From NCBI GenBank assembly GCA_043824495.1, contig JBDRSV010000008.1, positions 1 through 42,995 of the forward strand: DNA of 42,995 nucleotides. The letters are read 5' to 3'. This stretch comes from Candidatus Aenigmatarchaeota archaeon. Its GTDB lineage: Archaea; Aenigmatarchaeota; Aenigmatarchaeia; QMZP01. Position 1 is the first letter of the stretch, and each line of letters starts with the position of its first letter. Shown here in pieces: positions 7,344 to 32,540 of this stretch. Both the position numbers and the translations under genes were made by a program. The notes beneath the pieces are model-generated. The model made no database searches. It saw only the letters and a program-made list of their open reading frames with translations, and was not told the origin of the DNA.

Positions 7344-7524
7344 GCCGAGGTGGCTGAATGGCTAAAGCGCCAGACTTGAATCCAGATATTATGATGATCC
7401 TTCCACTGTGGAAGAGGTTAAATGACTAGTTGGCTTGACTCGGATCCGGCGGGTTATGAAGAGTTACCCTGGAAATATATCTGGTGTCCGCAAGGACATG
7501 CAGGTTCAAATCCTGTCCTCGGCG
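7344..7524 (+). tRNA. tRNA-Ser(UGA) with a 98-nt intron at 37/38 (7381-7478)
   Basis: GCCGAGG/CCTCGGC acceptor, CCAGA/TCTGG anticodon stem, long variable arm TGTCC-GCAA-GGACA, TTCAAAT T-loop, G73; relaxed BHB with CCAG/CTGG outer helix. Confidence 0.92.
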
Positions 7525-27802: not shown

Positions 27803-27905
27803 GGGCCGGTAGTCTAGTGGTATGACGCTGCCCTTACATCTTGGATCGTGAATACGATCTTGGTTGGATAGGCAGAGGCCGCAGGTTCAAGTCCTGCTCG
27901 GCCCA
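27803..27905 (+). tRNA. tRNA-Val(UAC) with a 31-nt intron at 37/38 (27839-27869)
   Basis: GGGCCGG/TCGGCCC acceptor, CTGCC/GGCAG stem, relaxed BHB, GATCGT/ACGATC intron stem. Confidence 0.92.
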
Positions 27906-28950: not shown

Positions 28951-29559
28951 ATGATAACGACTATACTTTTTGACGTTGGTGGAGTAATAGTAGAAGAGGA
29001 ATTCAAGGATTTTTTTGGTCAATACGAGAAAGAGACCGGATTCAGTAAACAAAAACTATACGAAGCTATTGTTGATATAGATTTCTGGGATATGTATAAC
29101 AAAGGAAAGGCTACAGAAGATCAATTAGAAGAAAAAATAAGAGAAAAAACCAATATTGATCCTAAGATTCTTCATAAGATCAGAACCGAGTGGAGACATA
29201 TAATCAAGCCTTATCCTCATATGATAGAACTTGTTGAAAAAATCAAGAAAAACTACAAGGTCTTTTGTTTATCAAATGTGGATAAAGACACTGTAAAATA
29301 CATAAACAAAAATTATCCTGATGTATATAAGGTCTTCCCTGGATGCGTCTTATCATGTGATGTTGGTATGATAAAACCAGATAAAGAGATTTTTGATTAC
29401 ACCCTGAGGAAATTTGGCCTGAAAAAAGAGGAAGTTATCTTTATAGACAATTATAGTCACAACACAGAAGCAGCAGAAAGCTTTGGAATCAAGTCTATTA
29501 AGTTTGAAAGTCATGATCAACTTGTAAAAGAGCTCAAAATGCTGGGAATACAGTTTTAA
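28951..29559 (+). CDS. HAD-superfamily phosphatase (subfamily IA)
   Basis: FDVGGV, LSN, KPD, FIDN. Confidence 0.9.
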   Translation: MITTILFDVGGVIVEEEFKDFFGQYEKETGFSKQKLYEAIVDIDFWDMYNKGKATEDQLEEKIREKTNIDPKILHKIRTEWRHIIKPYPHMIELVEKIKKNYKVFCLSNVDKDTVKYINKNYPDVYKVFPGCVLSCDVGMIKPDKEIFDYTLRKFGLKKEEVIFIDNYSHNTEAAESFGIKSIKFESHDQLVKELKMLGIQF

Positions 29560-29589
29560 AGGGTTATGTTAATTGTTATATGGGCCTCG

Positions 29590-29645
29590 GCCTGATGATG
29601 AAAACCTCACATGATCCAATATGATTGTGACGGGCATTCTGACTT
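29590..29645 (+). ncRNA. candidate box C/D sRNA (predicted target 16S C1402)
   Basis: C ATGATGA 29595-601, D' ATGA 29611-14, C' ATGATTG 29621-27, D CTGA 29639-42; guide GTGACGGGC is complementary to 16S 1401-1409. Confidence 0.6.
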
Positions 29646-29679
29646 CTCTTGATAGTTGTTTATACTCGTGGACAATCTA
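29621..29679 (+). repeat. H repeat copy 1 (59 bp)
   Basis: 47/59 identical to 32399-32457 and 45/59 to 30365-30423 (manual count). Confidence 0.9.
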
Positions 29680-29988
29680 TTTCTTACCACTGTAATTCTT
29701 CTGATAAGTATCATGATCGCACCATTCCAAAACAAGTGCTATGATTGTTATTCCTTCCTTACCGAGGGAATAGAGAAGTCTCCAACCACTTGGTAAATCA
29801 TATTTCCACAGGTTATCTATGTCCTTGAGATTCTTGGGAATTCTATATTTCTTGAGAGGTATCCCAATTCCAGGGGTTTCAATTATTTGGATAAATGCCT
29901 TTGTCAATGTTTTGTAAAGCTATTTGAATTCAGTGCTTTTTTCAAGAGATTCATACTCTTCCTTCAGTTTCTTATCCCTGAATATCAT
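29677..29988 (-). pseudogene. RelE/ParE-like toxin with an in-frame TAG at 29920-29922
   Basis: ATG 29988 overlaps the antitoxin TGA; reads MIFRDKKLKEEYESLEKSTEFK*LYKTLTKAF...NLWKYDLPSGWRLLYS...LEW.DH. Confidence 0.75.
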
Positions 29989-30317
29989 TTCGGTTGCCAT
30001 TTGAGATCTTCCCTGTTTATGTACTTTCTCACCATTTCTGGATTATATATCCAGACAATATGTCCTTTATTGTCCTTGATCGTGAATCCCATTGTGTCAA
30101 AATAATCCAGGATTACTGTGAGTGTCGGCCACATAACCTCTTTCTTAAGGTTTCTTGAAAGCTCTGTCTTTGTACAAGGACTGATTCTTTTTAGAGTCTC
30201 TGCTACCATAATTACAGTGTCTAATCGCGGATAATGAACGACATTGCAATTGAGCTCTATACGCCATTCCGTATTCTTTCTGTCCTTTGTAGTAAGAAGA
30301 TTTTTTTGTGTTTTCAT
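29985..30317 (-). CDS. wHTH putative antitoxin/regulator
   Basis: YPRLDTVIMV...KTELSRNL...WPTLTVILDY; GGTGAT RBS; coupled to the toxin. Confidence 0.75.
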   Translation of the reverse strand: MKTQKNLLTTKDRKNTEWRIELNCNVVHYPRLDTVIMVAETLKRISPCTKTELSRNLKKEVMWPTLTVILDYFDTMGFTIKDNKGHIVWIYNPEMVRKYINREDLKWQPK

Positions 30318-30364: not shown

Positions 30365-30423
30365 AAGGTTGTGACGGGCGTTCTGATTTTTCTTGATAGC
30401 GGTTTACCTTTGTGTGCAATCGA
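30365..30423 (+). repeat. H repeat copy 2 (59 bp)
   Basis: AAGGTTGTGACGGGCGTTCTGA...GCAATCG; direct repeat of copy 1 flanking the TA module. Confidence 0.88.
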
Positions 30424-30485
30424 TTTTTTTCTTTATTGAAACTACCAAAGACAAATGTTTTTATTCTCAAAAACATATTCATAAT

Positions 30486-30846: not shown

Positions 30847-30922
30847 GCAATCTGACCGCAACGAGTAGGTTGTGCCGAGCCCTGGCTAGGCTATTTACCT
30901 TTTTAGTAGCTCTTCGGGGCTT
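30847..30922 (+). repeat. B dyad, diverged H start and core
   Basis: GCAATCTG-N11-TAGGTTGT at 30847-30873; CTCTTCGGGGCTT at 30910-30922. Confidence 0.75.
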
Positions 30923-31924: not shown

Positions 31925-32029
31925 GCAATCTGACCACAGCGAATAAATTGTGACGGGCATTCTGATATTTCTTGATAGTTGTTTTGGTGATAATCATAAA
32001 AGAAAATGTTCTACGTTCTCCCGGGGTTT
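31925..32029 (+). repeat. B dyad, H copy 3 (internally shortened) and core
   Basis: GCAATCTG-N11-TAAATTGT; 34/40 to H1; TGTTCTACGTTCTCCCGGGGTTT at 32007-32029. Confidence 0.85.
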
Positions 32030-32379: not shown

Positions 32380-32540
32380 ACAATCTGCTCGCAACGGACA
32401 GGTTGTGACGGGAATTCTGAAGCCTCTTGTTAGCGGTTTACACTCGTGGACAATCTGATTCTGACGAACAAATTGCAGCATTAAAATATGGGCTCTTAAC
32501 TTTATGTTCAACTCCCTCCCGGGGCTTTAAGTCTGGGACT
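32380..32540 (+). repeat. B dyad, H copy 4, second B, core and AGTCTGGGACT flank
   Basis: ACAATCTG at 32380 and 32450 (70-bp period); GTTCAACTCCCTCCCGGGGCT at 32506-32526. Confidence 0.88.

Follow-up and report, generated by a model that had tools for sequence, protein, structure and literature searches.

A probable box C/D sRNA gene with a guide for 16S rRNA C1402 at the left border of a cassette array in an Aenigmatarchaeota-type archaeon

The stretch of DNA analyzed here (the window) is one whole 43-kb contig of 42,995 nucleotides, which belongs to a 1.01-Mb genome assembly (G000) that comprises 29 contigs and is 80% complete. A gene for a HAD-family hydrolase occupies positions 28951 to 29559, and its stop codon lies 35 nt before a 48-base candidate sRNA (29595 to 29642, plus strand) with the layout C, D', C', and D. 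A TATA-like box, TTTTAAAG, at 29554 to 29561 (plus strand) overlaps the HAD stop codon and is a putative promoter element. To the right of the candidate lies an array of repeat-bounded gene cassettes. Elsewhere in the window, two tRNA genes of 181 nt (7344 to 7524) and 103 nt (27803 to 27905) were found by Rfam but not by ARAGORN, and they presumably carry introns.

On the plus strand, the candidate begins with box C (ATGATGA, 29595 to 29601) and continues with a 9-nt D' spacer (AAACCTCAC, 29602 to 29610), box D' (ATGA, 29611 to 29614), a D'-C' linker that reads TCCAAT (29615 to 29620), box C' (ATGATTG, 29621 to 29627), an 11-nt D spacer that contains the guide (TGACGGGCATT, 29628 to 29638), and box D (CTGA, 29639 to 29642). 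This is exactly the box layout and spacing that a first-pass annotation of the DNA had described. The terminal boxes fit the RUGAUGA and CUGA of archaeal box C/D sRNAs. The internal boxes are non-canonical, D' in its first base, yet both retain TGA and thus the GA dinucleotides needed for a kink-loop, and position 6 of C' (U) can pair with position 1 of D' (A). Guide spacers in archaeal box C/D sRNAs are usually 12 nt long. The D spacer of the candidate is near this norm, its D' spacer is the shortest in the sRNA family described below, and a length of ~12 nt on both sides is therefore not observed. The window copy has two further peculiarities. An additional GC-rich segment of 11 nt, GGGCCTCGGCC, moves the TATA-like box further from box C, so that the distance between them, 34 nt, exceeds that in relatives by ~10 nt; and no clean T-run follows box D, because repeat sequence comes next.

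That repeat sequence overlaps the candidate itself. Copy A of a direct repeat (29625 to 29687, plus strand) comprises the 3' part of the sRNA, namely, the end of C', the D guide, and box D, together with ~45 nt downstream. The first cassette, on the minus strand at 29677 to 30317, is a two-gene toxin-antitoxin-like module with ORFs of 76 and 110 aa. Three more copies follow on the plus strand: copy B at 30369 to 30431, which has no box C upstream; copy C at 31948 to 31984, which has no working box C upstream and is also matched by positions 40 to 63 of our sRNA model (see below); and copy D at 32403 to 32465, a GTGACGGGA variant. A diverged relative of the repeat lies near position 30865, and the repeat is absent elsewhere in the genome. 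The modules that the repeats separate are unrelated to one another: the toxin-antitoxin-like pair, a membrane protein, a nitrilase-family enzyme, and a CxxCxxCC protein. Further cassettes downstream are bounded by a second repeat type.

The C/D box layout alone is near chance level. The genome contains 98 RTGATGA...CTGA pairs within 18 to 75 nt, 24 of which have a 9-of-10 rRNA complement somewhere, and the rRNA score of the candidate's D guide is equalled by 8 to 10% of shuffled guides, so that complementarity by itself is weakly significant. A stricter pattern requiring all four boxes had two matches in the 1 Mb of forward sequence, one of them the window element, and none in the reversed genome. 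No Rfam family over the element reached its gathering threshold; a permissive search gave nine weak matches (≤20 bits), all to C/D-box families and all on the plus strand, of which sR2 was the best archaeal one (14 bits against a cut-off of 42). Neither snR70 nor SNORD43 was among the matches to the element up to an E value of 10. A census of further C/D sRNAs in the genome, based on box patterns with TATA and T-run filters, yielded no clear candidates.

The occurrence of the element in other genomes was more informative. The pattern RTGATGA-N25-50-GACGGGCNNNCTGA matched 10 of the 91 genomes of the order, and a wider version matched 15 of the 371 genomes of the phylum; the reversed-pattern control gave no matches in either case. 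With scans of public genomes and metagenomes included, ~20 distinct sequences of the family were recovered from more than 15 Aenigmatarchaeota-type genomes and from metagenome contigs. They share the architecture ATGATGA, a variable spacer, ATGA, ATGATT(A/G), TGACGGGCA.., and CTGA. When 10 homologs were aligned, box C, the GA of D', the TGA of C', TGACGGGCA within the D guide, and box D proved invariant, box D' read ATGA in 8 of the 10, and the consensus of C' was ATGATTA; the D' spacer (which varies in both length and sequence), the D'-C' linker, and all flanks were divergent. Most homologs have a TATA-like hexamer ending 22 to 29 nt before box C, and many have a T-run downstream. This pattern of conservation is the decisive evidence that the candidate represents a real sRNA, as far as sequence comparison can indicate. 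The first-pass annotation had named lack of box conservation in relatives as an observation that would count against it, and the boxes are conserved, with one exception in the same genus that is described below.

A sequence model built from the 10 aligned homologs was used to find further variants. One genus (g10; G057 and G058) carries a long hairpin of ~55 nt inserted between D' and C'. Another (g23; G056 and G023, loci L070 and L071) has a 30-nt single-guide mini form that lacks the C' and D' boxes and reads GGGGGG-ATGATGA-TATTGCTT-TGACGGGCAAT-CTGA-CCCCCG, with a GGGGGG/CCCCCG terminal stem. A degenerate copy in which box C is ATGATAA and box D is CTGG was found in G010 (L052, contig C25) and G083 (L054, contig C50). 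These two genomes are assigned to different families, and their DNA is identical over at least ~210 nt around the degenerate sRNA, which suggests that the copy is a pseudogene and that the contig may be shared or mis-binned. The distribution of the family is patchy, with representatives in ~20 of the 91 genomes of the order. Two sets of matches were set aside. Those of the 21-nt guide pattern in three bacterial MAGs and two GC-rich metagenome sequences are coding-like, have no box C upstream, and were attributed to chance. In addition, GACGATGATTGTGACGG recurs in genes for cysteine-rich repeat proteins, where it encodes a D-D-D-C-D-G motif (L065, L066, L067, and L059, in G012, G010, G056, and G051), and these matches to the sRNA model are weak and false.

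The gene order around the sRNA is informative as well. On two related contigs, L092 and L097, the same HAD gene is followed by the sRNA and then by a T-run, and in L092 GTTTTAAAGG likewise overlies the stop codon of this gene; the position of the sRNA behind the HAD gene is therefore ancestral in the lineage. The exception mentioned above is G001, a genome of the same genus as the window's. At its syntenic site (L010, contig C17, 1490 to 1580), the HAD stop codon is followed directly by a degenerate repeat core, GTGACAGGCAATATGA; the ~60 nt with the promoter and boxes C, D', and C' of the sRNA are absent, and no other copy was detected in that genome.

The first-pass annotation proposed that the D guide selects C1402 of 16S rRNA (E. 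coli numbering). No 16S gene was found in the genome assembly with an archaeal SSU model, by BLAST with the 16S sequences of relatives, or by motif, and the same-genus genome likewise lacks one, so the target was deduced from relatives. An archaeal-type 16S was matched in 39 genomes of the order, which span all six of its families, and every one of them carries ACACAC-U-GCCCGUCA (in DNA letters GCACACAC-T-GCCCGTCA, also written GCACACACTGCCCGTCA), and the longer 16S reads continue as ...UGCCCGUCA-A-GCC. In the order, positions 1400 and 1409 are thus U and A, respectively (e.g., L022, L024, L026, L029, and L030). Against this sequence, bases 29628 to 29636 of the D guide (U to A; positions +3 to +11 counted from box D) would form nine contiguous Watson-Crick pairs with 16S 1408 to 1400 (A1408 to U1400), UGCCCGUCA. 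A box C/D RNP accommodates a maximum of about ten guide-target pairs, and nine is close to that. The fifth base upstream of box D, G29634 (+5), lies opposite C1402, and the N+5 arithmetic of the annotation was thus correct. The complementarity on which the proposal depends is present throughout the order's 16S (39 of 39), and the pairing in the window organism itself is predicted from these sequences.

Two details of the proposed pairing had to be revised. The annotation paired GTGACGGGC (29627 to 29635) with 16S 1401 to 1409; the first of these pairs, G29627:C1409, does not exist, because the order's 16S carries A1409 and G29627 is left unpaired. It had also cautioned that positions +2 and +3 mismatch the standard C1399 and C1400. 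The mismatch at +3 disappears because A29636 pairs with the U1400 of the clade's 16S, and the one between +2 and C1399 remains. An A occupies +3 in every guide recovered from the order. A covariation of this base with position 1400 of the 16S was considered and rejected: G235, the only outgroup genome with both an sRNA-like match and a 16S gene, has C1400 and nevertheless A at +3, so the A:U1400 pair is a match and not a proven covariation.

Other complements of the D guide in the assembled genome are limited to the antisense strands of the repeats and one coding-like site; none lies in an RNA gene. When the 16S and 23S of G012 and G024 were searched, the 1400 region was the best site in both genomes. 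C1402 is the one small-subunit 2'-O-methyl site that is listed as common to E. coli (Cm1402), Pyrococcus abyssi (Cm1369), yeast (Cm1639), and human (Cm1703) (PMC11542601, Table 2). In a survey of seven archaea, predictions in helix 44 were few; A1408 was described, and C1402 was not (PMC4644070).

Several rRNA genes encountered in these searches have unusual structures. The 23S genes of G000 (contig C3, 6545 to 11000; L031), G002, and G024 (L035 and L036) measure 4.36 to 4.46 kb against a model of 2,987 positions and therefore contain large insertions or introns. The 16S gene is longer than the model in G002 and G077 and is split into pieces in G012. The 1.9-Mb bin G038, from the same order, contains five bacterial-type 16S fragments (GTACACACCGCCCGTCA) on contigs C31, C57, C65, C78, and C88, which points to contamination.

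The first-pass annotation described a double-guide sRNA, and this part of its proposal did not hold up. The D' spacers of the family range from 9 to 12 nt and have only their first bases, AAGC, in common. For the four genomes in which the sRNA could be compared with rRNAs of the same genome, the best match of the D' guide to 16S and 23S was equalled by 25 to 98% of shuffled guides. The pairing suggested for D' was with helix 44. In relatives, helix 44 does contain a GGUGAGG sequence close to where the annotation had placed the pairing, ~25 nt 3' of the D-guide target, yet the D' spacer matches it at only 6 to 8 of 9 to 11 positions. The D' spacer is thus probably not a working guide, and the sRNA seems to be effectively single-guide, with the D' side kept for RNP architecture. 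The single-guide reading agrees with the genus whose mini form has neither C' nor D'.

The core proteins of a box C/D RNP are partly represented in the assembly. Fibrillarin is encoded on contig C25 (E = 7e-78) and L7Ae on contig C24. No Nop domain (Nop5) was found in the 80%-complete assembly, the incompleteness of which is the likely reason, since a search of 26 genomes (the window genome and 25 relatives) detected the domain in 24, among them the one of the same genus. The gene nop5 usually sits directly upstream of the fibrillarin gene. Two ORFs of 233 and 187 aa lie at this place (L001, contig C25 of G000, 201 to 1475); as candidates for a divergent Nop5 they were rejected, having no Pfam or PDB sequence match.

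Given the anatomy of the motif, its conservation, the complementarity in relatives, and the presence of fibrillarin and L7Ae, we consider it likely that positions 29595 to 29642 (plus strand) are the gene for a box C/D sRNA in a DPANN archaeon of the Aenigmatarchaeota type. The D guide of this sRNA would select 16S C1402, as the first-pass annotation had proposed; expression, RNP assembly, and methylation are inferred. The steps by which such an RNA would act derive from established knowledge of box C/D RNPs. L7Ae would bind the kink-turn formed by C and D and the degenerate kink-loop formed by C' and D' (AUGA with AUGAUUG), after which Nop5 and fibrillarin would assemble on the sRNA. The 11-nt D spacer would pair through its nine Watson-Crick positions with 16S 1400 to 1408, and fibrillarin would then transfer a methyl group to the 2'-OH of C1402, the P-site cytidine, which faces +5. 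The D guide is apparently the only functional one.

Three other explanations were weighed against this reading. The one that retains the most weight, although we regard it as unlikely, accepts the family and takes the window copy to be a decaying or inactive remnant, a pseudo-sRNA that ceased to be expressed or assembled when cassettes inserted at its 3' end and its leader changed. The degenerate G010/G083 copy shows that decay occurs in the family, and the 5' half of the sRNA has been lost at the syntenic site of G001. The window copy itself has the shortest D' spacer, the GC-rich insertion of 11 nt ahead of box C, and no T-run after box D. Its terminal boxes are nevertheless canonical, the GA of C' and D' is intact, and the nine guide bases that pair with 16S are unchanged. 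Moreover, L102, the most similar contig at the locus (sRNA and toxin-antitoxin module 86% identical), contains the same cassette next to a fully consensus sRNA. Another explanation would make the element merely the leftmost copy of a recombination-site repeat, with its C/D likeness, including the upstream ATGATGA, a coincidence. C...D box pairs are indeed frequent by chance, and the D guide and box D lie within a ~63-nt direct repeat that occurs in four copies in 3 kb, with box C at copy A only. This explanation is largely refuted by the homologs: full-length copies occur in many genomes that lack a repeat array, where they have unrelated flanks, signals resembling a promoter, and often others resembling a terminator; at the empty sites of L092 and L097 there is simply the HAD gene, the sRNA, and a T-run; and reversed-pattern controls gave no matches. 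We therefore judge a coincidence very improbable.

It is somewhat less improbable, but still hardly likely, that the sRNA is real and its conserved guide serves another role, either on a different RNA target or as a chaperone for folding of the 3' minor domain without methyl transfer. The duplex begins only at +3, which places the target nucleotide near its end, and the similar guide of G235, from another order and with C1400, forms a run of just seven pairs and a single isolated one. The survey of seven archaea likewise has few predictions in helix 44, and C1402 is not one of those described (PMC4644070). On the other side stand the 1400 region as the best site in the 16S and 23S of G012 and G024, the lack of an alternative complement in any RNA gene of the assembled genome, and the 2'-O-methylation of the equivalent position in P. 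abyssi, yeast, and human (PMC11542601). Methylation guided to C1402 thus remains the reading that we favor for the conserved D guide.

Since the D guide and box D form the core of the direct repeats that flank cassettes here and in two other lineages, the 3' end of the sRNA gene seems to be a recombination target as well. One of these lineages is represented by the metagenome contig L102 (Ga0210057_1010935), where, at 225 to 2600, a consensus sRNA is followed by a ParE-like toxin-antitoxin module and a Fic/DOC gene, with a second core copy between these two cassettes and a third one after the Fic/DOC gene. Its toxin-antitoxin module has 86% nucleotide identity to that of the window, and its toxin ORF is intact at 107 aa (weak ParE_toxin match, E = 0.0018), in comparison with the 76-aa ORF in the window; flanks have been exchanged among the core copies. 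The other lineage is G024, of a different genus (L060/L076/L101, contig C122, 1457 to 2030), in which a hicBA pair, encoding HicA (E = 1e-17) and a HicB-like protein, lies between two perfect 32-nt copies of GATGATTATGACGGGCAATCTGATTTTTTGTT (C', guide, D, and T-run), the left one within an intact sRNA. Occupied sites are thus found in G000, L102, and G024, and empty ones in L092 and L097, while the cassette content of both G001 and L102 differs from that of the window. The genes that lie just downstream of the sRNA in L092, L097, and L102 are located on contig C15 (69576 to 76055) in the window genome, so the locus has also been rearranged, apparently with a breakpoint at the array.

No recombinase was found within the window or L102; the genome has seven Phage_integrase (tyrosine recombinase) matches, all on other contigs. 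A metagenome scan for the full array repeat returned no match. A reading of the repeats as attC or attI sites was rejected: compared by eye, their ends, TTGTG...ACAATC, differ from RYYYAAC...GTTRRRY, there is no adjacent IntI, and the window contains no tyrosine recombinase.

Taking these observations together, we consider the 3' end of the sRNA gene to be probably a recombination hot spot. More tentatively, and with somewhat less than even confidence, we propose that it serves as the chromosomal attachment site of a trans-acting system of cassette capture, in which modules without a recombinase of their own would insert and rebuild the sRNA each time. The modules so captured would be ParE-like and HicAB toxin-antitoxin pairs, Fic, and, in the window, a longer array of single-gene cassettes; the resulting array would resemble an integron, with a guide-RNA gene as its anchor in place of attI or a tRNA gene. 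This proposal draws on the contrast between empty and occupied sites, the 32-nt repeat of G024, the shuffled flanks of L102, and the differing contents of G001 and L102, as well as on the loss of the 5' half of the sRNA in G001 and the move of the ancestral downstream genes to C15.

As an sRNA, the element is of a genuine, conserved, and already known type, and its possible second role as an integration site is the newer thread. It resembles described archaeal box C/D sRNAs, such as the Pyrococcus sR families and the 26 sRNAs of Nanoarchaeum equitans, in having the same terminal and internal boxes, a length of ~50 nt, and a guide adjoining box D, and it would share with them the N+5 rule and the dependence on L7Ae, Nop5, and fibrillarin. 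In contrast to these, the family to which it belongs has AUGA as D', AUGAUUR as C', spacers of 9 and 11 nt in the window copy, and one conserved guide, falls below Rfam thresholds, and in some genera takes the mini form or carries the 55-nt internal hairpin. In eukaryotes, snR70 of yeast and SNORD43/U43 of humans and plants guide the 2'-O-methylation of the decoding-centre cytidine, the same nucleotide as that predicted here. These RNAs differ from the archaeal element in size and gene context and have no detectable sequence-family relationship to it. In Arabidopsis, AtU43 is listed for Cm1645 (PMC11542601). In bacteria, C1402 is methylated by protein-only enzymes, RsmI together with RsmH (PMC11542601, PMC11551388). 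RsmI modifies the ribose of the same nucleotide, but it is a stand-alone enzyme that uses no guide RNA.

The array has its own parallels. Integrative elements at tRNA and tmRNA 3' ends and integron arrays likewise have an intact RNA gene at the left border with partial 3' copies as direct repeats, and their content likewise varies between close relatives, with empty sites. The window differs from them in that the target is a C/D sRNA gene, the inserts measure 0.5 to 1.5 kb and lack a recombinase of their own, and there is no adjacent integron integrase.

The candidate would provide a concrete conserved guide RNA for the sole listed small-subunit ribose methylation that is common to Bacteria, Archaea, and Eukarya. 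Its host belongs to a genome-reduced DPANN lineage for which we found no described C/D sRNAs, and its guide fits an rRNA target at a site that has changed in the lineage, the order having U at the otherwise near-universal C1400 of the decoding centre. Should the observation on the repeats be borne out, a C/D sRNA gene could be counted alongside the tRNA and tmRNA genes in which integration occurs, and this would explain why an array of accessory genes starts exactly at the sRNA.
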